From the NCBI GenBank assembly GCA_965197905.1, contig CBDAOB010000005.1:1216001-1280000 (forward strand): DNA of 64,000 nucleotides, written 5' to 3'. How positions within the stretch are numbered: the first letter of the stretch is position 1; the number at the start of each line of letters is the position of its first letter. Under the pieces are notes generated by a model. That model worked only from the letters and a program-made list of their open reading frames with translations, had not been told where the DNA came from and did no database searches. The DNA comes from Candidatus Latescibacterota bacterium (GTDB lineage Bacteria > Latescibacterota > UBA2968 > UBA8231). The translations under genes were made by a program, and so were the position numbers. This document shows, piece after piece, positions 18,257 to 37,377 of the stretch.

Positions 18257-18287
18257 CGGGTCGGCTGGTGAGACGTGGAAGCTGAAT

Positions 18288-19430: not shown

Positions 19431-19477
19431 ATGTCCTCCTTGCGAGGAAACGGCGAACAGACAGATGCAGAGGTGGT

Positions 19478-19521
19478 AAAACGGCGAGGGCCTGCTTCCC
19501 CACGGGTAAGCAGGCCCTCGC
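19478..19521 (-). terminator. Rho-independent terminator of the 19540..19977 gene
   Basis: 14-bp perfect inverted repeat GCGAGGGCCTGCTT...AAGCAGGCCCTCGC followed by CGTTTT on the minus strand. Confidence 0.8.
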
Positions 19522-19539
19522 AAACCTTGGACTTAATTC

Positions 19540-19977
19540 TCAGCCAGTGACGGCACCGTGAAATTCGGTCCAGTCTTCCAGGTTGTTAAGATTTACGGCG
19601 TCGAGGATCGAACCGTCGTCGCTGATGCCGGCGGCCGACAGGATTCCACCTCTGGTTCCGTCATCGTGATTATACCCTCTGATGGCGGAATTCGAGGCTT
19701 CGATCTCGCTGCTCGGAATGCTGCCACCACGCTGATCGAGGACCCACTTTTCGAACTGGGCGTAGGTAGGCAGGTTGTCTTTGATGTAGCTGATGGCGCT
19801 GTCGCGGTCGACCTTGAGGCCATCCAGCGCCATCTGATCGAATCCCTGTCCACACTCATCGTAGCTACTTTCCAGTTGGCCTTTGGCGCTCAACAGAACC
19901 TTCGACCACAATCGCGGCAGGTGGATAGCACCAAGCGGTCCTGAGAGATCCGAACTGATTAGGGGAATCTGTGCCAT
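19540..19977 (-). CDS. DUF5069-like protein
   Basis: 'GPLG..HLPRLW.K', 'G.D...L..L', 'PTY.QFE.W', 'N.L.DW'; strong AAGGAGG RBS. Confidence 0.7.
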   Translation of the reverse strand: MAQIPLISSDLSGPLGAIHLPRLWSKVLLSAKGQLESSYDECGQGFDQMALDGLKVDRDSAISYIKDNLPTYAQFEKWVLDQRGGSIPSSEIEASNSAIRGYNHDDGTRGGILSAAGISDDGSILDAVNLNNLEDWTEFHGAVTG

Positions 19978-20079
19978 GATAGTCCTCCTTTAGGTGGGTT
20001 GGGCAGCACTAATCGCGCCGATATTTGATGTAGGGTTCGTACTATAGCTTAGCTAGCGGTGCGTGTCAATCAAATCTCG

Positions 20080-21489
20080 TCATGAGCGGTCCGCACGCCT
20101 GGAGTGCCCTGCGAGCGAGCCCCAAGGGCCGTGTACTGCCAGGGTCATCCCCGGCCACTGAATGTTCACGAACAAGGTGGTCGCATCCGGGGAGAAAGTG
20201 GCTCCCGCGAACTCCGAATTGTTCATCGCATTGCGCGCAAACTTGTAGATGTTGCCTCCAGGAGTTACCCCAACCATGAACTGTTCCTCCGGGCCGTCCT
20301 CGCAAAGCAGCAGGTCGCCCCATGGCGATACCGCCAGGTTATCGGCGTTGTCCACCAAAGCGGAATCGTTCGGTTCGATGAAGAGTTCAAGGGTGCCCGG
20401 CTTCTCATCTTCTTCTGGGGAGCCCTCGTGGATGCTGGGTTCGTAGCGCCACACCTGCCCTTTTAGCGTCTTGCCCCCGCTAGTGCAGATAAAATACATC
20501 GCCCCATTACCATAAGCGATTCCTTCGCCCCGCGCGAAGCGGGCGGCCCCGTTGGCGAAACCCTGAAATCGGAGATCGTCGTCGGGTGCCTGCACGTTCT
20601 CGATGTCGATCCAGCGTACCGGTATTGTTGTGCCGGGCAAGACGTTCTGCGCCTCCCAATTTCTGGTGTCCAGGCTCTTCGCATCTCGTGTAGCGAGCGC
20701 CTGAAGTCTGCCGCCTTCGTGGAGAGCGCCTTGGCGGTGAGGAATAAAACGGTAGAAGAGACCATCGCCGCGATCCTCGGTTTCGTAGACGATCCCGGTA
20801 TTCGGATCCACCGCCACCGCTTCATGTACGAATCGGCCCATGGCTTTCAAGGGGTTGGGCGTGGTGACGCCACGCTCACCTGCGGGAACCTCAAAGTTGA
20901 ATCCGTGATCCTGCTCGAAGGTCTCTCCCGATCTTTGCGGCGTCTCCTCGCAGCTTATATAACTGTTCCAGGGGGTTGGGCCGCCGGCGCAATTGCGCAC
21001 GGTGCCGGCGAGGCTCAGATGGTGATGCTCGAGGCGGCGAGATCGCGTGTTGTAGGTCATGGTTGTGGTCCCGCCGAGACATGGCAGCGACCGGCGACCA
21101 CCGTCAAACAGGGCTTCCCAGGGACGGCCAGCCAAGAGTTCGTTGCTGTCGCCGAACGCTCCATTGCCCACCGATCCGGGGGTCAGCTCGTGGTTGCAAA
21201 TCAACATGGTGTTCTCGCCGGCTCCGGCAAAGGCGGCCATTCCATCCTGACCAGCCGGCACCAGCAGGCCGTCGTCCATCTGGCGCCCGGCTACCGAGAC
21301 AACGCTGTAATCGAAGCCCGGAAGCAGGTCGACCACACCGATGGGGTCGGGAACAGGATCGGGAAACGGCAGGTTCGGAACGGCCTGCGTGGCGCTGCAG
21401 TAACCCGCTTCAACGAGGTGGCGCAGGCCGAGAAATCCCATCGTCGCAGCAGTGGAGGTTTTGAGAAACTGGCGCCTCGCAAGACTCAT
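20080..21489 (-). CDS. phoX: PhoX-family (DUF839) Tat-exported alkaline phosphatase
   Basis: Tat signal 'SLARRQFLK'; 'DGM', 'NHE', 'NCAGG.TPW...SCEE', 'MGRF.HE', 'TED', 'RGEG', 'DN', 'CED', 'SEF.G..FSPD..TLF.NIQ'. Confidence 0.88.
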   Translation of the reverse strand: MSLARRQFLKTSTAATMGFLGLRHLVEAGYCSATQAVPNLPFPDPVPDPIGVVDLLPGFDYSVVSVAGRQMDDGLLVPAGQDGMAAFAGAGENTMLICNHELTPGSVGNGAFGDSNELLAGRPWEALFDGGRRSLPCLGGTTTMTYNTRSRRLEHHHLSLAGTVRNCAGGPTPWNSYISCEETPQRSGETFEQDHGFNFEVPAGERGVTTPNPLKAMGRFVHEAVAVDPNTGIVYETEDRGDGLFYRFIPHRQGALHEGGRLQALATRDAKSLDTRNWEAQNVLPGTTIPVRWIDIENVQAPDDDLRFQGFANGAARFARGEGIAYGNGAMYFICTSGGKTLKGQVWRYEPSIHEGSPEEDEKPGTLELFIEPNDSALVDNADNLAVSPWGDLLLCEDGPEEQFMVGVTPGGNIYKFARNAMNNSEFAGATFSPDATTLFVNIQWPGMTLAVHGPWGSLAGHSRRADRS

Positions 21490-21551
21490 CAGTAGACTTG
21501 CCTTTCTGTCGGGATTTAATGTCGACGGTGTTAAATCTAAACACAAAGGTG

Positions 21552-23594
21552 ATGTCCAACCATCGCGGGGATCTGAGCATGGAGGGTCTGCAAAGCCGTT
21601 TTGAAGATGTGGACAACGACGGGGACCGAGAGGTAGTGGTGCAGAATCGATGGATCCGCGTAGAGCTGCGCGTTCCCCAACATCTCGGATACTCGTTCTA
21701 CAAGCGGCGCTTCACCTGGGGAGGCAGGCTGCAATCCCTGGTCTACAGACCGACAGGAACCGAATACTTTCTCACCCGCATGATAGATTTGGAAGGCATC
21801 AACCCTTTCGGCCTTCCCGACGAGTTGTTCCAAAGCTTCGAGTTTGACGACTCAGACGGCGAAAAACGAATCTTGAAGATGGGCGTGGGCATCTTCCGCT
21901 CAAAGGTCGGCGAGGATGGTTTCGAACCGCTGCCGTGGAGCTGGTATCAGGAGGAGGACGGGGATGAGCTGGTTGTCGCCTTTCGCCAGGACGTACGCGA
22001 TATAGGTCCTTACAGCTACGTTTACGAAAAACGATACCGGTTTCGTCCGGATGCCGCCTGGTTCGCCATGGATGTGACCCTCGAGAACCGCGGATCCGGC
22101 ACCATCGCCACTTCCTGGGACATCCACTCCTTTCATAAAGCCGGAGTGCCACCGAACACGTCCTGGCTGGTTGCGCCGAAAAACTGCTGGTCCAGCTGCG
22201 GTACCAGCCGGGTTCGCACGACCCTCAAGGAAGCGAGTCCCATAATGGCCACTCCGGAGACTCGCGAGATGGTGTCCGATAGGATCGTTTGGGACACCGA
22301 CGGAACGCCCTGGTGGTACGCGCTGGGGCCGGGCGACGGAGACGAATTCTATCTGCTGCGGGCGCGCTTCGAACCGTATTGGGGCATGTTCTGGGCGGGC
22401 TACGACGCGTTTACGCCGCAGGGGATCAACAACGTCGAGGTTCCGGCTGGCGATCGCGCCACCTGGGGATTTGACGTGACGCTCGGAGTGGGCGGCCGAA
22501 ACTTTGTTGCCGCCGCCGAGGATTCTGGTGTGACGATTGACCTGGATAGAGGCTCAGCAACGGTCTCCGTCCACGTGGCCTCCGAGCGCCAGGGAAAGCT
22601 GAGCGTTCAAGTGGCCGACCAGAGTGGACGATTACTCGCTCGCGAGCGCAGCGACAGGGCGGCACCGGAACGTCCGTTGACGTTGGATATAGACCTTCCC
22701 GATGAAGAGGACTTCTGCCAATTCGCCGTTACCTATGAAACTCCCTCGAGAATGCCGCTGCAGGTGGAAGAGATCCTGCCCCTGGGCCCGTCCCGACCCA
22801 CCTCCCATTTGCCGTTCGACGCCAGTGGTACCCGCGTTTTCGTGGCCGTGAGCCACGAGCTCGATCATCCCGAAGCGGATGGCCGATACCTGTGGTGTCA
22901 CGGCACCCAATCTGGTTTCGACGTTGACTGGCAAGGTAGTGGGCAAAGGATCCCGAGCGATATGACAGAGGTAGGTGTCGTCTGTCTGGTCGGCGACGCC
23001 TGGCCACCGACGGCGATCGACCGGCTCGTGCGATGGATTGAGTCTGGAGGGGGTCTGCTGCTGTGCGCCCCGTTTGGTGATCTTGCCTCCGGGCTTGGGT
23101 CGATCCTGCCAATGGTGCCCCTGGCAGCGCAGGACTCCGCGTTGCCCAGCACCCACGTCGTCCAGGGCACCGGGATGCCGCGGTACTCCGAAGCGGAATG
23201 GCGGGCGACCGAGGTGGGCGGGGAACTTCAGTTCGAGCGCCGGATCCACTGGGGCATCGAAGAGGTTGCCCCGGTCGTTGGCTTGCAGGCGGGCACCCCG
23301 CACCTGGTGGCGCGGAACCTCATGCTGGAACCTGACGCCAAGGTTCGCATCGGCCATTGGCAAGTCTGCCAACCCGGCCCCGAGTGTATCGTGCCTTTGC
23401 GTTACACCGATCCGGCGGGTAGTCCCGCCGTAGGCCTGGGTCAGATTGGTCTAGGCCGGGTAGCGGTGGTGGCGAGTCGCCCGGCCTGGGGCTCGCACTA
23501 CCACAAGGTCGTCTGGGATGGATGGGGACAGTACCACCGGGCGTTCTTTGCCGGCCTCATGGGTTGGCTCGCAGGTGTTTGGGAGGAAACATGA
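21552..23594 (+). CDS. Hypothetical protein: galactose-mutarotase-like N-terminal region plus class I GATase-like C-terminal domain
   Basis: Long ORF. The N-terminal 'RFTWGG...GLPDE.F...LKMGVG' region is beta-rich; the C-terminus has 'L..WIE.GGGLL' and 'G.GRVAV' typical of GATase-like domains. Start uncertain (21552 or 21579). Confidence 0.65.
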   Translation: MSNHRGDLSMEGLQSRFEDVDNDGDREVVVQNRWIRVELRVPQHLGYSFYKRRFTWGGRLQSLVYRPTGTEYFLTRMIDLEGINPFGLPDELFQSFEFDDSDGEKRILKMGVGIFRSKVGEDGFEPLPWSWYQEEDGDELVVAFRQDVRDIGPYSYVYEKRYRFRPDAAWFAMDVTLENRGSGTIATSWDIHSFHKAGVPPNTSWLVAPKNCWSSCGTSRVRTTLKEASPIMATPETREMVSDRIVWDTDGTPWWYALGPGDGDEFYLLRARFEPYWGMFWAGYDAFTPQGINNVEVPAGDRATWGFDVTLGVGGRNFVAAAEDSGVTIDLDRGSATVSVHVASERQGKLSVQVADQSGRLLARERSDRAAPERPLTLDIDLPDEEDFCQFAVTYETPSRMPLQVEEILPLGPSRPTSHLPFDASGTRVFVAVSHELDHPEADGRYLWCHGTQSGFDVDWQGSGQRIPSDMTEVGVVCLVGDAWPPTAIDRLVRWIESGGGLLLCAPFGDLASGLGSILPMVPLAAQDSALPSTHVVQGTGMPRYSEAEWRATEVGGELQFERRIHWGIEEVAPVVGLQAGTPHLVARNLMLEPDAKVRIGHWQVCQPGPECIVPLRYTDPAGSPAVGLGQIGLGRVAVVASRPAWGSHYHKVVWDGWGQYHRAFFAGLMGWLAGVWEET

Positions 23595-24886
23595 TCCGCC
23601 GGCGACATGGACTGTTGCTTCTCGCCATGCTTGCGCTTCAGGCTTCCGCCGGCGCGGAGTCCGAGGCGAGATTCGAATCACTCGGAGACTCGCTGGAAAC
23701 CCTGCTGACCGACAACCTGATTCCGTTCTGGTATCCGGGCGTCGTCGATCTAGCCCGCGGCGGTTACAGATTGAACCACGACAGCAGCGGGCGTTACCTG
23801 GGGCCTGCGGCGAAGCAGATCGAGAGTCAGGCGGGGACCTTGTGGTTCTTTGCACGTCTCGCCCGAAGTCCTTTCGGCACCGAGCAGCATCTTGCCGCCG
23901 CCCGGCACGGGTTTGAGTTCCTTCGGGATCGCATGTGGGACCGCGAGTTCGGAGGTTTCTTCTGGGAAATCGATTCGACGGCCGCGGTTGCCAGCAAACC
24001 CCACAAAGAGATCGGGGCGCAAGCCAGGGCACTTAACGCACTGTCCCAGTTCATTATGGCCACCGCCGACTCCAACGCGTCGCAGCTTGCCTCAGCGCTG
24101 TTCCGGCGTTTGGAACAGCATGGTTACGATCGAATACACGGCGGGTATCGCGAATTCTTCCGACGCGATTGGGGCGCCATGCCAGACCAGATCAGGTCGT
24201 ATTCGGGGTTGCGAACTGACGACAGATCGCTGCGGACTCATCTCCAACTCACCGAAGCCTTCGCGGCCTATTATCAGGTGACGGCGGACGAGCTGGTCCG
24301 CGATAGACTGATAGAGTTGATCCTGATACAGATCAACGCCATGGGTGATTCAAGCCTTACCTACGATCAAACCTGGCGGCCGCGCTCTGATCCTGAGAAT
24401 CGGGTTCGCTCACCAGGTCATGACCTAGAAGCTATCTGGGTGGTCGCGGAGGCGTGCCGCGCGGCTGGTCTTCCTGTGTGTCCGTTCGTTCCCCGATTCT
24501 CTCGAGAAGTCAGCCACGCGATCGAACGCGGTTTCGATCGAACAGACGGGGGGTTCGTATCATTCGTGCCCGGTCGGGGCCAAACTGGACACAAGGTTTG
24601 GTGGCAACAGGCAGAGGGGTTGGTGGCCACGCTTTACCTCTACAATCTCACCGGCGAAGAGGATTATTTGAACGTCTTCGTGGGCACCCTTGGCTGGATT
24701 CTGAACGCTCAAGCGGATCGCCGACGCGGCGGGTGGCATGCGATAGTGGATCGGGAAGCAGCCCTTGAAGAGAAAAAGGCGAGTACCCGAAAAACGCCCT
24801 TCGAAACCGGCCGAGCCTTGTTTCGAACACTGGAGATCGTCGAGGTCCTAGGCCGGGATGGAACGCCAAGCGGCGCAAAACGGTGA
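23591..24886 (+). CDS. AGE / cellobiose 2-epimerase family protein with signal peptide; catalytic motifs degenerate
   Basis: GGAGG RBS before ATG 23591; signal peptide 'MIRRRHGLLLLAMLALQASA'; 'PFW', 'D..GGY', 'GF.FL...MWD.EFGGFFW', 'GHDLE', 'KVWWQQAE'. Confidence 0.8.
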   Translation: MIRRRHGLLLLAMLALQASAGAESEARFESLGDSLETLLTDNLIPFWYPGVVDLARGGYRLNHDSSGRYLGPAAKQIESQAGTLWFFARLARSPFGTEQHLAAARHGFEFLRDRMWDREFGGFFWEIDSTAAVASKPHKEIGAQARALNALSQFIMATADSNASQLASALFRRLEQHGYDRIHGGYREFFRRDWGAMPDQIRSYSGLRTDDRSLRTHLQLTEAFAAYYQVTADELVRDRLIELILIQINAMGDSSLTYDQTWRPRSDPENRVRSPGHDLEAIWVVAEACRAAGLPVCPFVPRFSREVSHAIERGFDRTDGGFVSFVPGRGQTGHKVWWQQAEGLVATLYLYNLTGEEDYLNVFVGTLGWILNAQADRRRGGWHAIVDREAALEEKKASTRKTPFETGRALFRTLEIVEVLGRDGTPSGAKR

Positions 24887-24947
24887 TTTTCGAGGCAATG
24901 TGACCGCATTCAGGCCCCGTGGCAAACCGCGCATAATCAATTTGCGA

Positions 24948-24976
24948 TTGACAGGTCCGGACTTTGTAAGTATTAA
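24948..24976 (+). promoter_or_regulatory. Possible sigma-70 promoter for the cNMP-REC gene
   Basis: TTGACA-N17-TATTAA within an AT-rich patch. Confidence 0.5.
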
Positions 24977-25077
24977 TTAATAATACACTAACGACGAAAC
25001 AACAGACATTCCTGCCGCGGAATTTTCACTTATTCAGAGCTCCCCGCGGTCGGCAAGCGCGACGGAAAGCACCCTAG

Positions 25078-26040
25078 ATGGCACCGCCAGCCAGCGATAG
25101 TCTAATCAAGGTAATAGGCAAGATTCCTCTTCTCAGGGGTCTGTCACCCACCCAGCTACGTTCGATCATCGGAATCTGCGAGCATCGAGTTTTGAACGAG
25201 GGGGAGCTGCTTTGCAAGGCAGATTCGGCCGCCGACGAGATGTACATCCTGGTCGCAGGCGAATGTGGCCTTGTGGGAACGGAAAGCGAGATCATCAAGG
25301 AGATTGCTCCGGTTTCGACGGTTGGAGATGCGTCGCTACTAACCGGCGTCGGGCACCCAGCTAACATCCGGGTGTCGAAGCAAAGCCATATCTTCGCCCT
25401 GACCAAGTTCCAGCTAGACCGAACGCTGAGGCGCGACCTGGATATGCAGGTCAAAATCTATCGGAACCTGAGCGAAACTCTGGCTTCCTCTATGGGAAAC
25501 GAGGAAACCCTGCTCGAGGTGAACAAGAAGGAGAAGGACCGGTACGAGGTGCGTATCGCTTCCCTCGAGCGCCAACTCGGGAATCACACCCGCAAGATCG
25601 ACCTGGTCTTGGAACTGCTCGGGTCGCGTGCGGAGATGTCGAAGGACGAGGTCGATCTATATCTGCAGGAAAGGTTGAAAGACCTCGTGCCGCGGATTCT
25701 CGTGGTGGACGACGAAGCGGATTTTCGGCGATTTGCCAAGGAGGCTCTCGACTCCTTCTCCGTTTTGGAGGCCCAGAGCGGGAAAGAGGCCCTTCAGATC
25801 GTGCGCGAGGAACAGTTCGATCTGGTCATCGCCGACATCCGAATGCCCGAGATGGACGGATACTCGTTGCTGGCCAATCTGCGTACCTATTCACCGAACC
25901 TGCGGGTCGTGGCTGTGTCGGGTTACCTAGGGACCGAGGAAATCAGCGATTATGAATTCAATGGGTTCATCGATAAACCGATGGGGCCAGAACGTCTTCA
26001 GGAGGTGGTCGAAGCAACCCTCAAGCAGAACTACAATTGA
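25078..26040 (+). CDS. Cyclic-nucleotide-binding-like domain + coiled coil + C-terminal response-regulator receiver
   Basis: N-terminal 'IPLLRGLS...GELL..AD..ADEMYILV.G' (cNMP fold); C-terminal 'ILVVDDE...DLVIADIRMPEMDG...VSG...KP'. Confidence 0.85.
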   Translation: MAPPASDSLIKVIGKIPLLRGLSPTQLRSIIGICEHRVLNEGELLCKADSAADEMYILVAGECGLVGTESEIIKEIAPVSTVGDASLLTGVGHPANIRVSKQSHIFALTKFQLDRTLRRDLDMQVKIYRNLSETLASSMGNEETLLEVNKKEKDRYEVRIASLERQLGNHTRKIDLVLELLGSRAEMSKDEVDLYLQERLKDLVPRILVVDDEADFRRFAKEALDSFSVLEAQSGKEALQIVREEQFDLVIADIRMPEMDGYSLLANLRTYSPNLRVVAVSGYLGTEEISDYEFNGFIDKPMGPERLQEVVEATLKQNYN

Positions 26041-26118
26041 GGAAGGTAAGCGTACCTTCGATCAGGACTCCCAGAAGCCCCAACCACTGAGCTGTACTCA
26101 CAGCAACTCGATAGACAG

Positions 26119-28152
26119 ATGAAGTACCTGCTCACCGGAGGAGGTACGGGCGGTCACGTCTACCCGGCCCTGGCGCTCGCAGACGAGATCGCAGCTCGCC
26201 AACCTGCGGCCTCCTTCTTATACGTCGGCTTGGCAAGCAAGCTGGAAGCGTGGGTTGTCCCCAAGCGTGGATTCCCCATAAAGTTTGTGCGTTCTCGCTC
26301 CTGTCCCAGATCCACATCACCCTGGTCCTGGCTCGTCTTTTCTTTGACCCTGGCCGTCGGAATCCTACAGGCCTCCCTACTACTGCTGCGCTACAGGCCA
26401 CATCTGATCTTAAGCACGGGTGGCTACGTAAGTGCTCCGATAATGTTTGCGCACGGAATCCTCAAGAACATCGGCTGTTCACGCAGCAAGGTGTTTATCT
26501 TCGAGCCAAACGCCCATCCAGGGATGTTGAACCAGGCCGCCGGCAGGATGGCAGATCGAATTGGGGTCGCCTTTGAACAGGCGGGTCGATGGTTCGACAT
26601 GCGGCGGGTCGCAGTCGTCGGCTATCCCGTGCGGCGCGAGGTGTTGGCGTCGGATCGCGCGGTGGCCAGGAAGCGGTTTGGTATCCCACCGGAAGCGCCC
26701 GTCGTACTCGCATTTGGCGGATCGGGCGGGGCGCGGGCAATCAACGAAGCGGTGATCGATTCGCTGCCGCACCTTCTTTCCCGCCCCGAGCTCCATCTGA
26801 TACACATCACCGGTCAGTACAAAGGTGCAGACTATGACGCCGTGGCGGAAACGGCGGCGCGACTGGAGACTCTCTCTCTAGCTCCGAACCGCGCGGACAG
26901 ATACCACCGTTTCTCCTACATGGAAACGATTCAAGACGCCTATTCTGCCGCCGACCTGGCAATCTGCCGCGGCGGCATGGGCGCGCTTACCGAGATTGGC
27001 GTCTGCGGGTTGCCGTCCGTGATCATCCCATTGCCGTCCGCTGCTGAGGACCACCAGGCGATGAACGCGCGGGAGATGGAGAGAGCAAACGCGGCGCAGG
27101 TGATCTACGAAGAGGCATCGTGGCGCGAGGGCAAGATTTTCAGTCGTGTCGACGGCAAGCGCCTGGCGGCGAAAGTCACCGCACTGATAGACGACCGCGA
27201 GAAGCGCGTCGCCATGGGCAAGGCTGCTGCTACGCTGCCGCACAAGAACAGCCTCGATCTGATGCTTGCAGAGATCGAGAATCTCATTTTGGGGCGCCGG
27301 CCAGCACCTCTCACCTTAGAGTTTCCCGTTCGTGCGAAGTCGGTGCCTGAAGACCCCAATGCGCTGTTGCGCTGGGTGAGTCAGCGTATCGACGAAAGCA
27401 ATGACGTCAATGGCTTGGATCCGCGGGAATTGGCTTATCTGCGCCATCACGCGGACCGATTGTTGGTTTCCTCGGCATGGTACGAGACCCCGCTGGGCAG
27501 GCGGAATGTGGGGATCAAGCTGGTGGGCTACCTCCAGTATGTCGAGCATGTGCCGCTACTGCTGAGCATTCTGCAGGATCGAACCAGGGTTGGCCCGCTC
27601 AAGCGGCTGTTCGGAGGGGATTTTGTCCACGGTGGGTTCCTGCGGCGCAACGCCATCGAATTCGGGATTCGTAAGTTGGGTGTAGCGGACGAAACGGTAA
27701 AGGACGCGTTGATTCTCGCGTTGCGCGAGGATCCGTATTTTGAGGTGCGGGCTGTGGCGGCCAGAGCGCTGGGAGAGTTTATGGGCCCGTGCGTCGAGCT
27801 GGAAGAGCGCTTGGTCGAGGCGCTGGACGATCCCTATCCCGAAGTGGTCATCGAAGTGATTGGAGCCCTCGGCTCGATCGCTCGTCACGAGAAGGTCCTC
27901 GAGCACTTGCAAAGATTTTATTTGCACGACAGTTGGCAGATTAGACAGCGGGTAGTTGCTGTGCTCGCGCAGCTTCTCGAGCGCCGCCTCGTAGATCTAG
28001 ATGAGGTGGCGAAAAGCGCTGATCAAATTCTAATGACGTCCCCTTTCTTCAGTCCCCGTTTTCCCCTCAAACAGCAGCTGGACTCTCTATTCCAACAGCT
28101 TGAACGCGCTTCCGCGAGCCGGGAAAATCAACGGCACACTGCGGAACAGTGA
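26119..28152 (+). CDS. murG: MurG (lipid I GlcNAc transferase) fused to a C-terminal HEAT-repeat domain
   Basis: 'TGGGTGGHVYP', 'GGYVS.P', 'E.NA.PG..N', 'GYPVR', 'FGGSGGA..IN', 'DHQ..NA' in the first ~390 aa, then about 280 aa with HEAT/PBS-like repeats ('EDPYFEVRAVAARALG', 'DDPYPEV...VIGALG', 'DSWQIRQ'). Confidence 0.85.
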   Translation: MKYLLTGGGTGGHVYPALALADEIAARQPAASFLYVGLASKLEAWVVPKRGFPIKFVRSRSCPRSTSPWSWLVFSLTLAVGILQASLLLLRYRPHLILSTGGYVSAPIMFAHGILKNIGCSRSKVFIFEPNAHPGMLNQAAGRMADRIGVAFEQAGRWFDMRRVAVVGYPVRREVLASDRAVARKRFGIPPEAPVVLAFGGSGGARAINEAVIDSLPHLLSRPELHLIHITGQYKGADYDAVAETAARLETLSLAPNRADRYHRFSYMETIQDAYSAADLAICRGGMGALTEIGVCGLPSVIIPLPSAAEDHQAMNAREMERANAAQVIYEEASWREGKIFSRVDGKRLAAKVTALIDDREKRVAMGKAAATLPHKNSLDLMLAEIENLILGRRPAPLTLEFPVRAKSVPEDPNALLRWVSQRIDESNDVNGLDPRELAYLRHHADRLLVSSAWYETPLGRRNVGIKLVGYLQYVEHVPLLLSILQDRTRVGPLKRLFGGDFVHGGFLRRNAIEFGIRKLGVADETVKDALILALREDPYFEVRAVAARALGEFMGPCVELEERLVEALDDPYPEVVIEVIGALGSIARHEKVLEHLQRFYLHDSWQIRQRVVAVLAQLLERRLVDLDEVAKSADQILMTSPFFSPRFPLKQQLDSLFQQLERASASRENQRHTAEQ

Positions 28153-29264
28153 CCGCTGTGATCTACTATCTAGGCACATACCTATACGACACGGTGGAAG
28201 CGCTCTCCTTCCTGCGCTTGCTCAACTCGATCAGTTTTCGAGCGATTGCCGGGGCGATTACGGCGTTGTTGTTTACCATTCTGTTTGGCGATCGCATCAT
28301 CCTCTATTTCTATCGTTCCGGCCAGCGCGACACCCCGCGAAATTACGCCAGCTTCTCTACCGAGGGGGACTCCGCCAAAACCTACGGCGGTGGACTTATC
28401 GTTACCGGCATACTTCTGAGCGTCATTTTGTGGACGAAGGTCCACACTACGTTCGTGCTGCTGTGTATCGGAGCGGTTCTGTGGTTCGCGGCCTTGGGTC
28501 TAATCGACGACAGATTGAAGGTGCGGCATGGCAGCAGCGATCGCGGTCTTTCGGAGGCGGCCAAGCTGGTCCTGCAGTCAGTCTACGGCCTCGCTTTTGG
28601 CCTGATCTATGTAATCGAGGAACTCTCGCCTTTGCCGACGGGCTTGGCAACGCAGTTGTATCTCCCATTCGTCAAGAATCCAATTGTCGATCTCTCCTGG
28701 GGATACGTCCCTTTCGTAATCTTCACAGTGATCGCGATTGCCAACTCGGTCAATATCGCGGACGGAATTGACGGTCTTGCGGTGGTGCCGGTGGCGTTCG
28801 CCATCGCGGTTTTCGGAGTTTTTGCCTACGTTGCGAGCCACGCAGAGATATCGGATTTCCTGATCTTTCCGTTCATGCCGGGCGTCGGGGAGGTGGCCAT
28901 TATCTGTTCTGTCGTGTTCGGGGCCTGTTTGGGATTTCTCTGGTTCAATTCCTACCCCGCCAATGTCATTATGGGCGATACCGGCTCGATGGCGCTCGGC
29001 GGGCTCCTCGGGACAGCCGCGGTTCTTGTCAAACAGGAGTTCCTGTTTCTCATCGTCGGGGGGATCTTTGTGGGGGAGGCGTTTTCCGTCCTGGTGCAAG
29101 AAAAAATCGGCATCAAATGGCTGGGCAGACGATTCTTCCAGCGGGCACCGATTCACCATCATTTCCAGTCTCGTGGTCTCGCCGATACCAAAATCGTTAT
29201 TCGGTTCTGGATCATCGCCGGCATCTTGGCGCTGTGCAGCCTGGCAACATTGAAGATTCGATAA
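28149..29264 (+). CDS. mraY: Phospho-N-acetylmuramoyl-pentapeptide transferase
   Basis: 'ISFR', 'G.IDD..K', 'LPF.K', 'NSVNIADGIDGL', 'GFLWFN.YPA...MGDTGS..LGG', 'APIHHHF', 'IV.RFWI'; coupled to murG by a GTGA overlap. Confidence 0.93.
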   Translation: MTAVIYYLGTYLYDTVEALSFLRLLNSISFRAIAGAITALLFTILFGDRIILYFYRSGQRDTPRNYASFSTEGDSAKTYGGGLIVTGILLSVILWTKVHTTFVLLCIGAVLWFAALGLIDDRLKVRHGSSDRGLSEAAKLVLQSVYGLAFGLIYVIEELSPLPTGLATQLYLPFVKNPIVDLSWGYVPFVIFTVIAIANSVNIADGIDGLAVVPVAFAIAVFGVFAYVASHAEISDFLIFPFMPGVGEVAIICSVVFGACLGFLWFNSYPANVIMGDTGSMALGGLLGTAAVLVKQEFLFLIVGGIFVGEAFSVLVQEKIGIKWLGRRFFQRAPIHHHFQSRGLADTKIVIRFWIIAGILALCSLATLKIR

Positions 29265-29378
29265 ATACGTAGCTCCCCGCAGAATAGCTCAAGCAGATGC
29301 AATTCGACCGGCTCGATGGGTGCGCCCGCCCGTCAGGCCGGTGGCTAGGAAAGCGAATTTGATGTAGGCGGAGCTAGA

Positions 29379-29855
29379 TCAGAGAACGTTTAATCCGTAG
29401 ATACACAACAAGACGACCACGATACCCATGGTGACACTGATCCAAATCGGGATCGGAGCCGCCTTGTTTCCGTAATGTTCTACGGAATACCGGTTGTACT
29501 CCCGGGAGATCAGCATGTAGGCGGAGACAATCGAGCTGATAATCGCCACGATCAGGAATACAATGCCCATCTGTTCCGGTGCGAAGGTGCGGCTCAGGGT
29601 AAGCGCGTAGGAAATCACGTTCACCAGGAGTCCAAATTCGCGCGACACTAATCCGTAGATGACAATGCCGAGACTGAAGGAACTAATGGTGAGAGTGGCA
29701 AGACCACTCAGAATGGGTAGCTGGAAGAATGCGATCAGGACCAGACTGCCGATCAGAAGGTGAACCCACATCCCGGCGTAGGCATAGAAAAACGCCGGTC
29801 GCTCCAAAGAGGCTTGACCGACGAGATATTGGGAAAAGGTCGGGCGTTTGGTCAC
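29379..29855 (-). CDS. Hypothetical integral membrane protein (about 5 TM segments)
   Basis: 158 aa, highly hydrophobic, fills the gap between mraY and the PilZ gene. Confidence 0.7.
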   Translation of the reverse strand: MTKRPTFSQYLVGQASLERPAFFYAYAGMWVHLLIGSLVLIAFFQLPILSGLATLTISSFSLGIVIYGLVSREFGLLVNVISYALTLSRTFAPEQMGIVFLIVAIISSIVSAYMLISREYNRYSVEHYGNKAAPIPIWISVTMGIVVVLLCIYGLNVL

Positions 29856-29959
29856 AAGCTCAACGTGTGTAGCAGGGCGCAGCAGGGGCGGGGAGGCCCT
29901 AAGATACTACATCGTCTCTGCGGCCGTCAAGCACTCGATCGAGTCGAGGCTACTCGACT

Positions 29960-30769
29960 CTAAGCGGCGTTGGCCAGAGGACACTCCGAAGTTTCCAACC
30001 CTTTGCCGATGGTGTCGCGTTCCAGGAAGCGCACCAGGTTATAGCAGCTTTCTTGTGGTTCGTTGAAGGAGACGGCGAGGGCGTACACCGGGCCGCGTCC
30101 ATCGGTTGTCTGCAACCGACAGTTGACGATGCGGGCTTCTATCGCCTCCAAACCGTAGCGAATATCACGTTCTGCTCCGTTAGAGAGGTTGGTACCTGCC
30201 ATCGACGGTCGGGTGAATCGACCACGTTTGGCCGTTCTGCGACGGACCGCCTGCTCCACGTACTCTTCAGGTGCGGACAGGGTGAGGCGCAACGATTTCG
30301 ATGCCGGGATCTGGCGCACGAACACCTGAGCGCCACCGCCACTGAGGTTGGTGACCACGGCCGGTTTCGAAAGTGTCACTCCCGGTCTCGCGGTTTCCTC
30401 CCACTCCGCCAACGCTTTAAGGGTTACAGCAACTCGATAGGAGCCGCGACGCTGGTGCCCGTCAATGGTTCGAGGTAGCTTCAGCAGCAACACGGGCACT
30501 CGATCATGCAATCGCCGGCGTCCGAATATTTCGCTGGAGAAGGAGTAGTCCTTAGGGCTCTTTGGCAACGCCCGGACGGTGACCGAGGCGCCCCGAGGGG
30601 GACTCAAATCGGCGGGGGCGTCAACGCACAAATACCCGTCGGAGCTCAGATCCTGAATGCGCCCCAGGTGCTGCGAGGCGGAGATTTCCGGATCGTCAAA
30701 AGAGAGCAGGAAACGTTCGCCAATCTTTAGGCCATCCGGAAGCCGGTGGCCATTCTGTGTCTTAGCCAT
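29960..30769 (-). CDS. YcgR-like flagellar brake / PilZ c-di-GMP effector
   Basis: YcgR-N-like N-terminus; 'QRRGSYRV' (RxxxR) and 'NLSGGG' (D/NxSxxG); AAGGAG RBS before ATG 30769. Confidence 0.8.
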   Translation of the reverse strand: MAKTQNGHRLPDGLKIGERFLLSFDDPEISASQHLGRIQDLSSDGYLCVDAPADLSPPRGASVTVRALPKSPKDYSFSSEIFGRRRLHDRVPVLLLKLPRTIDGHQRRGSYRVAVTLKALAEWEETARPGVTLSKPAVVTNLSGGGAQVFVRQIPASKSLRLTLSAPEEYVEQAVRRRTAKRGRFTRPSMAGTNLSNGAERDIRYGLEAIEARIVNCRLQTTDGRGPVYALAVSFNEPQESCYNLVRFLERDTIGKGLETSECPLANAA

Positions 30770-30822
30770 GAGTGAATCTCCTTGACAAAAGTGATCACGT
30801 ATCAAAGTGATCGTATTACAAG

Positions 30823-30849
30823 AAATCGGCGGGTGCAGTCAAATCTTTA
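30823..30849 (-). promoter_or_regulatory. Sigma-28 (FliA/SigD) promoter for the PilZ gene
   Basis: Minus strand TAAA-N15-GCCGATTT, against the consensus TAAA-N15-GCCGATAA. Confidence 0.75.
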
Positions 30850-30930
30850 GTAGTATTTCATACTACATGGTAAGAATTTTTTGCAAGCTGCATCTGGCCC
30901 CGCCTAAAATGTAACAAGTGAAGTAAGAAC

Positions 30931-33003
30931 ATGGTCTTAGAAGTTAACAGGAGACTCGACGAGGCGGTCTCAACGGTCAAAGGGGTAGGGGTAAGGAGGG
31001 CGAAGGTATTGGCCGAAACGGGTATCTATTCCGTCAGGGATCTGCTCTACTACGTTCCGCGACGGTACTTGGATCGCAGCGTCGTGCTGCCGATTGCACA
31101 ACTGCGAACGGACCGTGAGGTCACCATCATCGGGCGAGTTGCCTTGGTTCAATCGTCGTATGGTCCAGGGACTCGGCTGACACTTACCGTTGAAGACGAG
31201 AGCGGTTCGATCGAGTGTATTTGGTTTGCAGGTAGCAAATACCTGGCCAAGAATTTCGAGGAAGGTGACCATCTGGCACTCAGCGGCCAGGTCCGAATCT
31301 ATAAAGGGCGGCAGCAATTCACCCATCCGGACTACGAATTCGTCAGCCTTTCCGGGGAGCAGAGCTTTCTCCACACCTCTGGAATCGTGCCGCTCTACAG
31401 TACCAGCGCGGATCTCAAGGAACGCGGATTGCGAACCCGCACCTTCAGGCGGGTTATGGCTCAGGCGCTGGATCAGTATGGCGAGGCCGTGGTGGACACG
31501 TTAGATCCAGACGACCGCGCGGAGTTGGGGTTGCTGGATCTGAAAACGAGTCTGCGGTCGGTGCACTTTCCGAGCGATGCAGAATCGGCACAGCAGGCGC
31601 GCCAGCGCCTTGCGTTTGAAGAGCTGTACCAGCAACAGCTGCTGCTGGCGCGGGCCAGAGCCCGGCGCCGCGCCTCCCGCGACGGGATCTCTCTCGGTCT
31701 CAGGGACCTGGTCGACCGCTTCCTGGAGCAACTCCCGTTCTCGCCTACTGAAGCGCAGCGCGCGGCAGCGGAGGAGATCCTGAGCGACATGGAGGATTCC
31801 TACCAAATGTGCCGCCTGCTGCAGGGCGACGTGGGATCGGGAAAGACGCTGGTCGCGCTCTGCGCCATTCTGCAGGCTGTTGGCAGTGGTTTTCAGGCAG
31901 CACTGATGGCGCCCACCGAGATTCTCGCCACGCAGCATTACCATACGATAGTACAGCAGCTCAATCCGCTCGGAGTAAACGCCCTTCTCTTGGTGGGCAA
32001 GCAACGACCGGCTCTCCGTCTGGAGCTGCTCAACTCGATCGAAACGGGCGCTGCGGACATCGTGGTCGGAACCCACGCGCTCATTCAAGAAAGCGTTAGG
32101 TTCCCGAAGCTCGGCCTGGTGGTGATCGATGAGCAGCACCGATTCGGCGTGGTCCAACGCGATCTCCTGGCGAACAAGAAAAAACAGGCGAACCTTCTAT
32201 ATTTGACGGCTACACCGATTCCCCGCACCCTGGCCCTGGCACTTTACGGAGACACCGATATGTCAATTCTGAATCAACTACCGCCCGGGAGGAAACCGGT
32301 CAGGACGGCGGCGCGATCGGAGACAAGCCGCGAAGCTATTCTCCGATTCGTGGCCGAGCAACTGGATTGCGGAAGGCAGGCGTATCTGGTGTATCCGTCC
32401 ATCGAGGACTCCGAAAAGTTGGGATTAAGGTCCGCTTCCCGGGCGTTCGAGGAGCTTTCCACTGGGGCTCTCGCAGGTTATCGGCTCGGGCTGCTTCACG
32501 GCCAGATGTCAGAGGATGAGAAAAACTCGACGATGAAGGGGTTCGTCGAGGGCAGCACCCAGGCGCTGATCAGTACTACCGTTGTCGAGGTGGGCGTCGA
32601 CGTCGCGAACGCGACGGTCATGGTGATCGAGAACGCCGAAAGGTTCGGTTTGGCACAGCTGCATCAGCTGCGTGGGCGCGTTGGGCGTGGTGTGGACGAG
32701 TCGTATTGCATACTCATCAACGCTGCCGCTGCGGACGGAGATCGGACCGCCGCGCAGAACAGAATCGATCTATTGTGCCGGACCAGTGACGGCTTCGAGA
32801 TCGCCGACGAAGACCTTGCCCTGCGGGGTCCCGGTGAGCTGCTGGGTACCGCACAGGCGGGACAGGCGGCATTTGCCGTCGCAGACTTGAGCCGGGATGG
32901 CGAGCTCCTGAGACAGGCTCGAGAGTTGGCCGGTAGAGTCGTAGGCCAGGACGACCATTGCCGGGAAGTTACGCAGCAAGTCGAACCAAATTCGGGATTG
33001 TAG
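30931..33003 (+). CDS. recG: ATP-dependent DNA helicase RecG
   Basis: 'DLLYY.PRRY.D', 'RLAFEE', 'RLLQGDVGSGKT', 'MAPTEILA.QH', 'IDEQHRFGV.QR', 'TATPIPRT', 'EVGVDV', 'AERFGLAQLHQLRGRVGRG', 'DL.LRGPG'. Confidence 0.97.
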   Translation: MVLEVNRRLDEAVSTVKGVGVRRAKVLAETGIYSVRDLLYYVPRRYLDRSVVLPIAQLRTDREVTIIGRVALVQSSYGPGTRLTLTVEDESGSIECIWFAGSKYLAKNFEEGDHLALSGQVRIYKGRQQFTHPDYEFVSLSGEQSFLHTSGIVPLYSTSADLKERGLRTRTFRRVMAQALDQYGEAVVDTLDPDDRAELGLLDLKTSLRSVHFPSDAESAQQARQRLAFEELYQQQLLLARARARRRASRDGISLGLRDLVDRFLEQLPFSPTEAQRAAAEEILSDMEDSYQMCRLLQGDVGSGKTLVALCAILQAVGSGFQAALMAPTEILATQHYHTIVQQLNPLGVNALLLVGKQRPALRLELLNSIETGAADIVVGTHALIQESVRFPKLGLVVIDEQHRFGVVQRDLLANKKKQANLLYLTATPIPRTLALALYGDTDMSILNQLPPGRKPVRTAARSETSREAILRFVAEQLDCGRQAYLVYPSIEDSEKLGLRSASRAFEELSTGALAGYRLGLLHGQMSEDEKNSTMKGFVEGSTQALISTTVVEVGVDVANATVMVIENAERFGLAQLHQLRGRVGRGVDESYCILINAAAADGDRTAAQNRIDLLCRTSDGFEIADEDLALRGPGELLGTAQAGQAAFAVADLSRDGELLRQARELAGRVVGQDDHCREVTQQVEPNSGL

Positions 33004-33015
33004 AGGAGTATAGCC

Positions 33016-34155
33016 ATGGAGGAGGTGCGAGTTGCCACATTCGCCGGTCCAGGGTCCAAACCAACGATCAGAACCGTAGCCAAACCTGCGGTGCCGGAGA
33101 ATGCAGCTCTGATAGAAATCGAAGCGTGTGGTGTATGTGGGACAGACCTGCATATCCTGAAAGGTCATTGGCCCGGCGAGCTGCCGTGGCCCTTCACCCT
33201 CGGTCACGAGCTAGCCGGAACCGTGGTTGAGATTGGCAGCAGGCTCACTCACGATTTTATGGGTGCTCCGTTGAGCGTGGGATGTCGCGCCATGCTGCCG
33301 CCATTGATGCCTTGTGGCAGCTGCTACTACTGCGTGCATTTTCCGACTCACGCCAATCGTTGTCTGCAACCGACCTACTACGGCAGGTACCTGGCGTTCG
33401 ACAAACCTCCTCATCTGTGGGGTGGTTGGGCGGAGATGGTGTACGTTGACCTCGACCTATTGCCGGCTACCAAAATCTACCGCTTGCCCGACGGTATGTC
33501 GGCCATGCTTGGATCGCTGTCGGAGCCGCTGACATCATGTATCCGTGCGCTAGGTCGCGCCGCCAGGAGTGGGGGATTCTCGGTGGGGGATACGGTAGTA
33601 GTGCAGGGGTCAGGCCCCATTGGGGTGCTGATGCTCGTGGCGGCTCGCGAAATGGGGGCGGGAAAGGTCTTCGTGGTTGGTGCCCCGGAACGCCCGCGAC
33701 TGGAAATATGCCGTGCCTTCGGAGCGGACGGCACGGTCTGCATCGAAGATTACGGTTCCGCCGCGAGCCGGATAGAAGCGGTCGGGCAAATGGTCGGAGG
33801 ATTTGGCGCCGATCTGGTGGTCGATTGCAGCGGGCATCCCTCCGCCGGTCCGGAAGGATTGGAGATGCTTCGCGACGGCGGAACCTACGTGGAAATGGGG
33901 CAGTTTACCGATGCCGGTTCGATCGAAACCAACTGGCACCGCATCTGCTCAAAGGATGTGACGATCGTGGGGAGTTGGGCGTTTACCGCAAACGACATTC
34001 CGTTGGCGATCGAAATGCTCGATAGAGCAGCCGATCGCTACCCCTGGTCACAACTGCAAACATCCTTCCCGTTCTCGGAAGAAGGAGTACAGGAAGCTAT
34101 TGACGCGGCCATGGCGATGCGCTGCGTGAAAGCGACCATACGGCCCAACCGTTGA
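33016..34155 (+). CDS. Zinc-binding alcohol dehydrogenase (MDR) family
   Basis: 'CGVCGTD', 'GHE', 'CGSCYYC.......C', 'EP', 'GSGPIG'. Confidence 0.9.
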   Translation: MEEVRVATFAGPGSKPTIRTVAKPAVPENAALIEIEACGVCGTDLHILKGHWPGELPWPFTLGHELAGTVVEIGSRLTHDFMGAPLSVGCRAMLPPLMPCGSCYYCVHFPTHANRCLQPTYYGRYLAFDKPPHLWGGWAEMVYVDLDLLPATKIYRLPDGMSAMLGSLSEPLTSCIRALGRAARSGGFSVGDTVVVQGSGPIGVLMLVAAREMGAGKVFVVGAPERPRLEICRAFGADGTVCIEDYGSAASRIEAVGQMVGGFGADLVVDCSGHPSAGPEGLEMLRDGGTYVEMGQFTDAGSIETNWHRICSKDVTIVGSWAFTANDIPLAIEMLDRAADRYPWSQLQTSFPFSEEGVQEAIDAAMAMRCVKATIRPNR

Positions 34156-34175
34156 GTGTTTGCCGGCGCCATCAT

Positions 34176-35543
34176 TCAGGAAATGCTCTTCAATCCCGAT
34201 TCGACGATAACGGCGATCTCGTCCGCTTCTTCCTTGGTCAAAATCAGCGGAGGCGCCACGAAGAATATCGGTTCGGGGCCGGCTATGGCGTGGCTCATGC
34301 GACCCAGAAGCAGCCCCTCCTCCTTCATCTTCTTTTGTACCTGCGCGGTGCGTGGTGCATCCAACATGCCACCCTCTTCATCCACCAGCTCGATGGCGAT
34401 CATGAGTCCCTTGCCGCGAACGTCCCCTAGAAACGGTGAGCTAATACTCGACAGACTCTCCATCAGATAGTTGCCCACCGTTTCGGCGTTCTCCCATAGC
34501 CTCTCCCGCAGAAGGATATCGATAGCTGTCACGGCGGCGGTGCAGCAGACGGGATGCCCGCCGTAGGTGGAAATCTGCGAGAACTCCCGATCTTCTTCAG
34601 GAGAGCCGAGGAACGCCTCGAACACCTCCGGGGTAACAACGCAGGCCCCCAGGGGCAGGTAGCCGCTGGTAGCGCCCTTTGCCAGCGTAATCATGTCGGG
34701 CACAACACCCCAGTGTTCGCAGGCAAATAACCTTCCGGTCCGCCCGAAGCCGTTGATGACCTCATCGAAAATAAGCAGGACTCCATAACGATTGCAGATC
34801 GCGCGAAGCTGGGGTAGATATTCGTCGGGAGGAACCAGAACTCCGCCGCCTCCTATGATTGGCTCGGCGATGACGGCGGCTACCGTTTCCGGTCCCTCGC
34901 GGACAATCGCATCTTCTATTTCTGCGACGCAGGCCACACCGCATTTCGGGTACTGCAGGTGAAGCGGACAGCGATAACAGTAAGGCGGATCTGTGTGCAG
35001 AAACCCGGGCACCAGCGGTTCGAACTTTGTTCGGCGACCCACCTGGCCCGTCGCGGAGAGGGCGCCCATGGTGAAGCCATGGTACCCCTGGTACCGCGCT
35101 ATCACCTTAAATCTGTTTTCGCCAGGAAATCGTTGCCGGCAGTACTGTCGGGCGATCTTCAGTGCCGTTTCGTTCGCCTCGGAGCCGCTAGCGCTGAAAA
35201 ACGAGTGCTGCAGATCGCCGGGCAGAATATCCGCGAGGCGGGAAGCCAGGTTGGCGGCGGGGGCGGTGACCATCGCGCTGGAAGCGTACGGAAGCTTCTT
35301 CATCTGCTCGTAAACCGCATCGGCGATCTCGGTGCGGCCGTACCCCAGGGTCACGTTCCAGATTCCCGCAATGCCGTCTATGTAGCTGTTGCCGTCCGCG
35401 TCCTGAACTCTAACCCCGTCGCCCGACGTGATCACCATGAGATCGGTCTGCTCAAGGGTCCGATGCTGCAGCATCGGATGCCACACGTGCTGTTGATCTA
35501 CAGTGCGAACGGCATCTGCTGAAATCGTCTCTTGTAAGGTCAT
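34176..35543 (-). CDS. Class III PLP aminotransferase (omega-amino acid / BioA-like)
   Basis: 'SGSEANE.A.K', 'YHG', 'EPI.G.GG', 'DEV..GFGRTG', 'PDMIT.AKG.TSGY.PLG', 'TY.GHP'. Confidence 0.92.
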   Translation of the reverse strand: MTLQETISADAVRTVDQQHVWHPMLQHRTLEQTDLMVITSGDGVRVQDADGNSYIDGIAGIWNVTLGYGRTEIADAVYEQMKKLPYASSAMVTAPAANLASRLADILPGDLQHSFFSASGSEANETALKIARQYCRQRFPGENRFKVIARYQGYHGFTMGALSATGQVGRRTKFEPLVPGFLHTDPPYCYRCPLHLQYPKCGVACVAEIEDAIVREGPETVAAVIAEPIIGGGGVLVPPDEYLPQLRAICNRYGVLLIFDEVINGFGRTGRLFACEHWGVVPDMITLAKGATSGYLPLGACVVTPEVFEAFLGSPEEDREFSQISTYGGHPVCCTAAVTAIDILLRERLWENAETVGNYLMESLSSISSPFLGDVRGKGLMIAIELVDEEGGMLDAPRTAQVQKKMKEEGLLLGRMSHAIAGPEPIFFVAPPLILTKEEADEIAVIVESGLKSIS

Positions 35544-35587
35544 CTCTCGATCCTCTGCTCCTGCTGGGAGTGTTCGTCGATTGCGCT

Positions 35588-35616
35588 AATCTACTGTTAG
35601 TCTTCGACAGCATCAA
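35588..35616 (-). promoter_or_regulatory. Possible sigma-70 promoter for the class III aminotransferase
   Basis: Minus strand TTGATG-N17-TAGATT in the divergent intergenic region. Confidence 0.45.
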
Positions 35617-35726
35617 CGCACCGTAGCAGTCAAGGCGATGTGTTCGCTTGACTTGATGATGTCATTTTGATAACTACTCGAATTGCAACGGTTTTCGAGC
35701 GCTGTGGAATCGCCAAGGATCCTGCA

Positions 35727-36794: not shown

Positions 36795-36811
36795 AAATCC
36801 AGGGTGAGTAG

Positions 36812-37300: not shown

Positions 37301-37377
37301 CACGTTGTGGCGGCTGAGTATCGCTGCGTTGTGCAGCCGTCGCGAATCGATCTCACTGCCCTCCAATACCTGATTGA

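Follow-up and report, generated by a model that had tools for sequence, protein, structure and literature searches.

Whether MraY and MurG form a complex in which lipid I passes directly from one enzyme to the other is an old open question. The published support considered here comes from co-localisation, two-hybrid and affinity data (PMC6420597, PMC9046198), and MurG has been proposed to sit with MraY and the Mur ligases in a complex in which MurG itself is the oligomeric scaffold, the available text describing neither a dedicated adaptor domain nor a MraY-MurG structure (PMC6420597). No MraY-MurG complex was named among the descriptions returned by our searches of the PDB, none of which was aimed at one. 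Natural Mur chimeras, namely MurE-MurF, MurC-Ddl, MurC-MurB, MurG-MurC, MurD-FtsW and MraY-MurG, have been surveyed and read as a sign of complex formation (PMC10214165). Here, we describe a two-gene cassette from a Candidatus Latescibacterota genome (assembly GCA_965197905.1), located in a window of 64,000 nucleotides (contig CBDAOB010000005.1, positions 1,216,001 to 1,280,000), in which murG is fused to a HEAT-repeat domain and is followed directly by mraY. As in the Mur chimeras, a peptidoglycan enzyme is fused to another protein, but while the chimeras join two pathway enzymes, MurG is joined here to a repeat domain that is not an enzyme. The fusion in the window falls outside the chimera definition, which would cover those relatives whose MurG and MurJ share a chain. 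The parts of the survey available to us, supplement included, do not contain the word HEAT and list no fusion with MurJ (PMC10214165). In Kitasatospora, a MurG-like enzyme has been described whose gene is separate from the canonical one (PMC8092295); there it is an extra copy beside the canonical murG of the division and cell wall (dcw) cluster. The MurG in the window is instead the only one in its genome and comes with MraY and the HEAT domain. We take the Kitasatospora substitute to be the protein named MglA. Our literature search, which did not cover subscription journals and most supplements, retrieved no description of a MurG-HEAT fusion, and the cassette is apparently undescribed in print.

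The fusion gene is a single unbroken open reading frame of 677 residues (26119-28152, + strand), as the initial annotation had proposed, with a MurG part (residues 1-390) followed by a HEAT solenoid (residues 406-665). The Pfam profiles PF03033 and PF04101 match residues 4-149 and 195-377, HEAT_2 matches residues 529-616 (50.8 bits against a cut-off of 27.7), and the AlphaFold model is nearly all helix from residue 413 onward. The reported order of murG before mraY is also correct, but the reported overlap, which would be of four bases, exists only if mraY starts at GTG 28149. The more likely start is GTG 28158, where most of the close homologues, which are 368 residues long, begin, and which leaves a gap of five bases; the genes abut either way. 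No other mur or fts gene was found nearby, in agreement with the annotation: there is none among the open reading frames listed for positions 18000-38000, five flanking frames of which were scanned for domains, and the genes for the Mur ligases are either about 680 kb distant or on a different contig. We conclude that the pair is the housekeeping lipid II pair of this bacterium, and consider it somewhat probable (about 55%) that the HEAT domain acts as an adaptor through which MurG is tethered to MraY. The features of the two genes are as follows.

26119-27288, + strand: MurG catalytic region (residues 1-390), GT-B fold, the sole MurG of the genome, from PF03033, PF04101 and fold matches.
26452-26484, + strand: MurG insert 1, clade-specific, around residues 112-122, from the alignment by eye.
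26815-26898, + strand: MurG insert 2, clade-specific, a lengthened helix region around residues 233-260, from the alignment by eye.
27109-27147, + strand: MurG insert 3, a clade-specific beta-hairpin around residues 331-343, from the alignment by eye.
27289-27333, + strand: linker (residues 391-405), with no helix or strand and lower model confidence; the least conserved stretch, with no alignment column at 90%.
27334-28152, + strand: HEAT-repeat alpha-solenoid (residues 406-665) plus a short tail and the stop codon, from HEAT_2, the model and fold matches.
27502-27651, + strand: basic and glycine-rich HEAT signature, a candidate binding surface, invariant or nearly so in 63 homologues.
28149-29264, + strand: mraY, the only MraY of the genome (TIGR00445, 270 bits against a cut-off of 192.05).
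28374-28394, + strand: AKTYGGG in place of TPTMGG; the alignment shows T75 kept, K70 lost and a lysine gained at P74.
28506-28511, + strand: catalytic D117-D118 of MraY, invariant in 63/63 sequences.
28977-28979, + strand: D274 of MraY, corresponding by alignment to the magnesium ligand D265 in Aquifex, invariant in 63/63 sequences.
29154-29162, + strand: HHH motif of MraY (H333-H335, loop E), intact here and relaxed in the clade.

The genome (91% complete, five contigs; here G000) has a single match to PF04101 and four matches to PF00953, of which one is a true MraY. The other three PF00953 proteins score far lower and align with the window MraY at 28-33% over a partial length, and the two that were scanned are WecA-like. 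The dcw cluster is placed on contig C5 at 1.922-1.935 Mb, about 680 kb from the pair, and has the order mraZ, rsmH, ftsL, ftsI, murE, murF, ftsW, murC, ftsQ, ftsA, ftsZ, as read from the translations and confirmed by domain scan for murC and murF. The murF-ftsW and ftsW-murC junctions leave no room for mraY or murG. Genes for MurC, MurD, MurF, FtsW and FtsI-like and FtsZ-like proteins are all present, murD on another contig. Since both genes of the pair are sole copies and are missing from the dcw cluster, they represent the housekeeping pair and not a paralogous pathway. An earlier candidate finding, that MurD is missing from the phylum, was wrong: it is encoded elsewhere in 164 of the 168 genomes, and in the clusters viewed murD lies outside dcw even in families with an ordinary mraY and murG.

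The window MurG scores 213.6 bits with TIGR01133, which is below the curated cut-off of 250.25, although this is still its best family. All 30 fused MurGs scored are likewise below the cut-off (199-243), while the three unfused MurGs of the related family f3 are above it, and the protein scored was the only candidate in each genome examined. The best fold matches of the MurG part are the MurG structures 1f0k and 3s2u, and in an alignment with these the glycine loops and the substrate-binding residues are kept. The residues G12 and H13, G101, G200, S202 and G204, R284, E292, and H312 and Q313 are invariant in 79/79 MurGs, and N316 is kept in 78/79. MurG is characterised by three glycine loops and by the R/E/Q/N residues of the UDP-N-acetylglucosamine (UDP-GlcNAc) site. 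Based on family membership, catalytic residues and sole-copy status, MraY would make lipid I and the MurG domain would add GlcNAc to give lipid II. The families, folds, catalytic residues, inferred reactions and sole-copy status are the same as for the canonical dcw enzymes (E. coli 1f0k and 8g01; Aquifex MraY 4j72), from which the pair differs in its location outside dcw, the order murG-mraY, the three inserts in MurG and the HEAT domain of 260 residues. An alternative, raised by the initial annotation for a paralogous pair, is that a paralogous or specialised pair makes a variant lipid-linked precursor. The low TIGR01133 score, the HEQN motif of MurG, which reads FEPN here with E129 and N131 kept, and the absence of K70 and the isoleucine in place of F262 in MraY could be taken in its favour. 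However, the second murG or mraY that it had suggested looking for in a canonical dcw cluster was not found in this genome, each of 33/33 further cassette genomes tested has one murG and one mraY, and the mur and fts genes listed above are present, which makes a variant precursor very improbable. A slightly changed substrate is conceivable.

Among named records, the closest carry the label Candidatus Latescibacterota. In a set of 168 genomes from this phylum, searched at E 1e-12, the HEAT profile matches 82 genomes, and the same 82 carry a lower-scoring MraY beside it. The annotation had named an architecture already widespread and characterised as a refuting case; it is widespread, in the phylum and in further lineages, but our literature search retrieved no characterisation. 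By family, the matches comprise 73 of the 75 genomes in f1 plus G000, 3/3 in f3, 1/1 in f13 and 4/5 in f14, with no match in f2, f4 or f5-f12. The two f1 genomes with no match, at 58% and 76% completeness, have no mraY either. In 79 of the 82 genomes, no more than 500 bases separate the HEAT region from an mraY downstream on the same strand; the remaining three are fragmented assemblies with HEAT and mraY on different contigs, one of which shows the mraY start at the contig end. In a set of 93 loci, mraY follows the HEAT stop codon on the same strand in 87, within 60 bases in 84 of them, and the rest comprise three with a longer MraY behind the stop and three that end at a contig edge. The HEAT region is part of a frame of at least 650 residues in 75 of the 82 genomes, the other seven being three stand-alone genes in f3, three f1 copies with short frames close to the end of a contig, and a copy that is split. 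Among 24 genomes of the same family as the window, 22 have the complete fusion, one has it truncated at a contig end and another has it split into two frames within the HEAT part (L030, genome G012). This split gene and the separate HEAT gene in f3 are what could speak for an assembly error or a recently lost stop codon as the origin of the fusion. Such an origin is ruled out by the conservation of the full-length fusion in these relatives, in the phylum and in 32/32 more distant loci, and the third-position GC content (GC3) is alike in the MurG and HEAT parts (0.71 and 0.67); the chance of an artefact is negligible.

The three f3 genomes encode the HEAT protein separately, a situation that the annotation had named as its other refuting case, but they do so beside mraY, and the fusion is otherwise conserved. 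Their stand-alone HEAT gene precedes a cassette-type mraY, while their murG is an ordinary dcw gene that codes for no inserts and is placed about 450 kb or a contig away. Since the HEAT gene in f3 adjoins the cassette mraY while the native murG sits in dcw, the HEAT domain tracks the type of MraY rather than the type of MurG. This raises the possibility that it is an accessory subunit of the cassette MraY clade, acting in folding, activity, regulation or localisation, with its fusion to MurG or MurJ being incidental and the hand-over of lipid I beside the point. Also in line with this, the HEAT domain is always the C-terminal part of whichever gene precedes mraY, the three stand-alone copies all keep 39 of the 44 positions conserved in the fused domain although their MurG lacks the inserts, and canonical motifs are relaxed in the MraY of this clade. 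On the other hand, the fusion is held in the 75 genomes noted above (four of the other seven being cut or split f1 copies) and across lineages, the only fusion partners seen are lipid II enzymes, the fused MurGs carry conserved inserts of their own, and the model packs the two domains together. We consider such an accessory role unlikely, at around one chance in four, and retain the adaptor as the preferred reading.

The inserts were identified by eye: all three are common to the ten fused MurGs aligned and none is present in nine unfused MurGs, including those of f3. In the model, the region of the second insert contains a helix at residues 241-252, with G232, Y239 and Y262 conserved, and the third consists of two strands at residues 332-336 and 339-343.

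To learn how far the cassette extends, 185,579 genomes were scanned, which gave 184 loci. Among the best 80 of the 184, which were analysed, the 32 lowest-ranking are the distant loci, and in all of these a MurG fused to HEAT is followed by mraY. They are labelled KSB1, Myxococcota, Syntrophobacteraceae and other Thermodesulfobacteriota, and Gemmatimonadota, or are unassigned. The murJ gene is located directly upstream in 4/32, and the order in a KSB1 locus is murJ, murG-HEAT, mraY, murF, mpl; the neighbours otherwise vary among lineages and include no conserved extra partner gene besides murJ. Of 12 murC loci from other lineages, 11 have ftsW directly against murC, with nothing in the murG slot. 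Of 1.84 billion representatives, the best 150 matches were taken, and from these we picked 54 homologues, each with a single long match and none of them an evident near-duplicate. They include 23 MurG-HEAT, 4 MurG-MurJ-HEAT, 1 MurJ-MurG-HEAT and 2 MurJ-HEAT proteins, the last of which are possibly cut, along with 6 MurG fragments with HEAT and 18 with HEAT and no other Pfam domain, several of which look by eye like fragments of fusions. Thus, 36 of the 54 are fused to MurG and/or MurJ, and Pfam identified no other fusion partner among these full-length homologues. In the MurG-MurJ-HEAT proteins, the stretch between MurG and MurJ (about residues 400-500 in P0110) looks FHA-like by eye, with no Pfam FHA hit at E 1e-4. 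A metagenome scan with one HEAT region of the MurG-MurJ-HEAT form gave no match, and neither did a search for the cassette in 72,556 plasmid records at E 1e-8.

The cassette MraYs form one group against the seven native dcw MraYs of the phylum (SH-aLRT support 92), with the f3 MraY inside it, in a tree of 59 of the 78 rows from which close f1 rows had been dropped. The fused MurGs also form one group (support 97; 53 rows), with the stand-alone MurG of f3 placed among the native dcw MurGs. These were quick trees with few outgroups, all from one phylum, and with roots on long branches. The cassette has replaced the dcw murG and mraY in several lineages, which means that the two most central dcw genes are replaceable as a two-gene unit, and its patchy distribution suggests horizontal spread. 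The simplest history for the class would begin with gain of the cassette and loss of the native mraY; f1 would then have lost the native murG and f3 the MurG part of the cassette, while f2 and f4 would have undergone a replacement. The ordinary order murF-mraY-ftsW-murG-murC is seen in f8, f9 and f10, among the loci listed. In f2 and f4, neither HEAT nor an MraY at E 1e-40 was found (0/53). All five genomes examined from these families (loci L053, L055, L057, L059 and L060) have a divergent MraY-like gene that lies outside dcw and is followed by an amidohydrolase-like gene; it scored 116-125 bits in the two that were scanned, far below the TIGR00445 cut-off, and the f2 genome examined also has a PRK12446-type MurG outside dcw. 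This looks like a second, independent replacement.

Alpha-solenoid folds commonly bind proteins. When modelled alone, the HEAT part is a solenoid of 14 helices with a predicted local distance difference test (pLDDT) of 93.5. It matches alpha-solenoids with Z scores of 17-18 and a root-mean-square deviation of about 3. For HEAT-like and alphaRep proteins such as 7p0h, 4xl5 and YibA (1oyz), the Z scores are 14.8-17.5, the deviations 2.8-3.6 over about 207 residues and the identities 14-22%, and because no match rises above generic solenoid repeats, the fold points to no particular function. An ESM Atlas search retrieved only generic HEAT clusters, at about 0.91. The family shares its fold with HEAT-like and alphaRep proteins (PF13646) but has signature motifs of its own, consisting of R462, N463, G465 and K467 and of R496, G499, G500, D501, G506, R509, R510 and N511, which are kept in all three stand-alone copies. 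The 44 conserved positions include eight arginines and one lysine, and the arginine and glycine signature may represent a binding surface.

The model of the full-length fusion has a pLDDT of 93.4 and a predicted template modelling score (pTM) of 0.90, which is high over 677 residues and suggests a fixed packing of the two domains. The same value would also fit a HEAT domain that serves MurG only, as a stabiliser, as a former of oligomers or as a membrane tether through its basic surface, with the neighbouring mraY kept by operon inertia. The eight arginines and the lysine could bind anionic lipid or pyrophosphate, and MurG oligomers are known (PMC6420597). However, such a role leaves unexplained why an intact stand-alone HEAT gene is located beside mraY and far from murG in f3, and why the HEAT domain comes after MurJ in the MurG-MurJ-HEAT proteins, and we regard it as improbable.

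According to the adaptor reading, the HEAT domain would be non-catalytic, pack against its own MurG domain as the model predicts, and bind the cytoplasmic face of the cassette-type MraY, to which the complex prediction points weakly. MurG would thereby be held where lipid I is released, and in the relatives with fusions to MurJ the flippase may be recruited too. The complex was predicted from MraY (residues 26-368) and MurG-HEAT (residues 1-657) with 58-row alignments of each. Three runs scored 0.43, 0.42 and 0.49, against 0.00 for three controls, agreed in at least 85% of the contacts and had a pLDDT of at least 79 for the partners. Of 157 solved complexes, 116 reach the pass mark, as do 2 of 215 mismatches; at or below 0.60, however, the passes comprise only 18 of the solved complexes and both of the mismatches, and these counts are only rough for the present alignments. 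The scaffolded lipid I/II complex suggested by the initial annotation is thus supported by the genomics, that is by linkage, sole copies and fusions, and only weakly by the complex prediction.

Several observations weigh against a tether. The weak pass defines no interface, and contacts of MraY with the HEAT domain and with MurG are indistinguishable. Ordinary MurG and MraY have already been reported to interact (PMC6420597), and a tether is not required since the canonical enzymes hand on lipid I by differences in affinity (PMC9046198). Furthermore, the genomes counted for co-occurrence are related and stand for a handful of independent events, f3 being one event in three genomes. The native MurG of f3 lacks the inserts that might receive a bridging HEAT domain, which fits a role for MraY only better, and an approximately unbiased (AU) test did not reject a position of this MurG within the fused clade (p 0.08).

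A more far-reaching version of the adaptor reading, which we hold tentatively and with somewhat less than even confidence, is that the HEAT domain is an undescribed, dedicated coupling factor of lipid II synthesis. It would fasten MurG, and MurJ as well in some lineages, to an MraY that has co-adapted with it, and the resulting stable assembly line for lipid I and lipid II would have been passed between phyla as a unit, taking the place of the dcw genes. If so, a stable MraY-MurG complex could be purified for structure determination, and lipid I channelling could be tested directly. A lineage that has hard-wired a conserved repeat domain between MurG and MraY offers a natural and probably stable complex, and the genomes of the class are a ready-made deletion series, with the fusion, with a stand-alone HEAT gene and a native MurG, or with the cassette absent. 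The window contains the plainest form of the family and adds a family-wide case within one phylum, with a natural series linking the HEAT domain to MraY and not to MurG.

The window MraY aligns over its full length to the solved MraYs. In the Aquifex enzyme, the catalytic residues are D117, D118 and D265, the pocket contains T75, N190, D193, G194, D196 and G264, and K70 bonds the uracil of inhibitors (PMC6606608). The pocket residues are kept in the window MraY as T75, N199, D202, G203, D205 and G273, whereas K70, L195 and F262 of the uracil pocket (Aquifex numbers) are not and correspond to G70, I204 and I271. The altered TPTMGG motif described in the annotation is present at 28374-28394. The two lysines are nearly exclusive, in that 32 of the 34 sequences with K74 lack K70, while 29/29 with P74 have it; the pattern suggests that the lysine at position 74 may compensate for the lost K70. 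This shift represents one inherited event confined to f1 and not 63 events. We rejected AKTYGG as a hallmark of the cassette, as it is limited to f1 and 29 of the 63 cassette MraYs keep the proline form, and also as a sign of a dead enzyme, as the catalytic residues are kept.

The cassette MraYs differ from the canonical enzyme in forming a separate clade with a relaxed HHH motif, in addition to the lysine shift in the family of the window. The first histidine is present in 63/63 of them, the second in 54/63 and the third in 34/63, while 7/7 native dcw MraYs from the phylum have kept HHH. In f3, whose genomes have no other MraY, the site reads HYT (L039:6755-7864, L040:8580-9689, L041:6781-7890). 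The clade has its own conserved residues, D58, S132, K316, G318, A342 and T344, several of which probably lie near the cytoplasmic loops, as mapped by the alignment with Aquifex MraY. The cassette MraYs labelled Myxococcota (L128, L129 and L132) are about 460 residues long, roughly 90 beyond the usual length.

MurJ (PF03023, E 1e-30) had no match in 161 of the 168 genomes of the phylum, including G000 and all 75 in f1, at a threshold that also missed a Bacteroides control. Amj was not found in 5/5 genomes tested, and the best MurJ hit in G000 is marginal (28 bits), a membrane protein at about 8800-10326 of the window.

A promoter scan of the locus gave 0 sites against 1.3 expected, and terminators were no more frequent than by chance. 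According to Pfam, the flanking genes scanned code for a cNMP-binding and receiver protein, a PilZ protein, an AGE-family epimerase, RecG and a small protein with no assignment. The cNMP-binding and receiver gene (25078-26040, + strand) ends 78 bases before murG, has the same orientation and was not seen in this position in seven same-family loci viewed. On the other side, a gene convergent with mraY (29379-29855, - strand) codes for a hydrophobic protein of 158 residues with no Pfam match, and a look-alike is placed in the same position in six of the seven loci, mostly with recG next to it.

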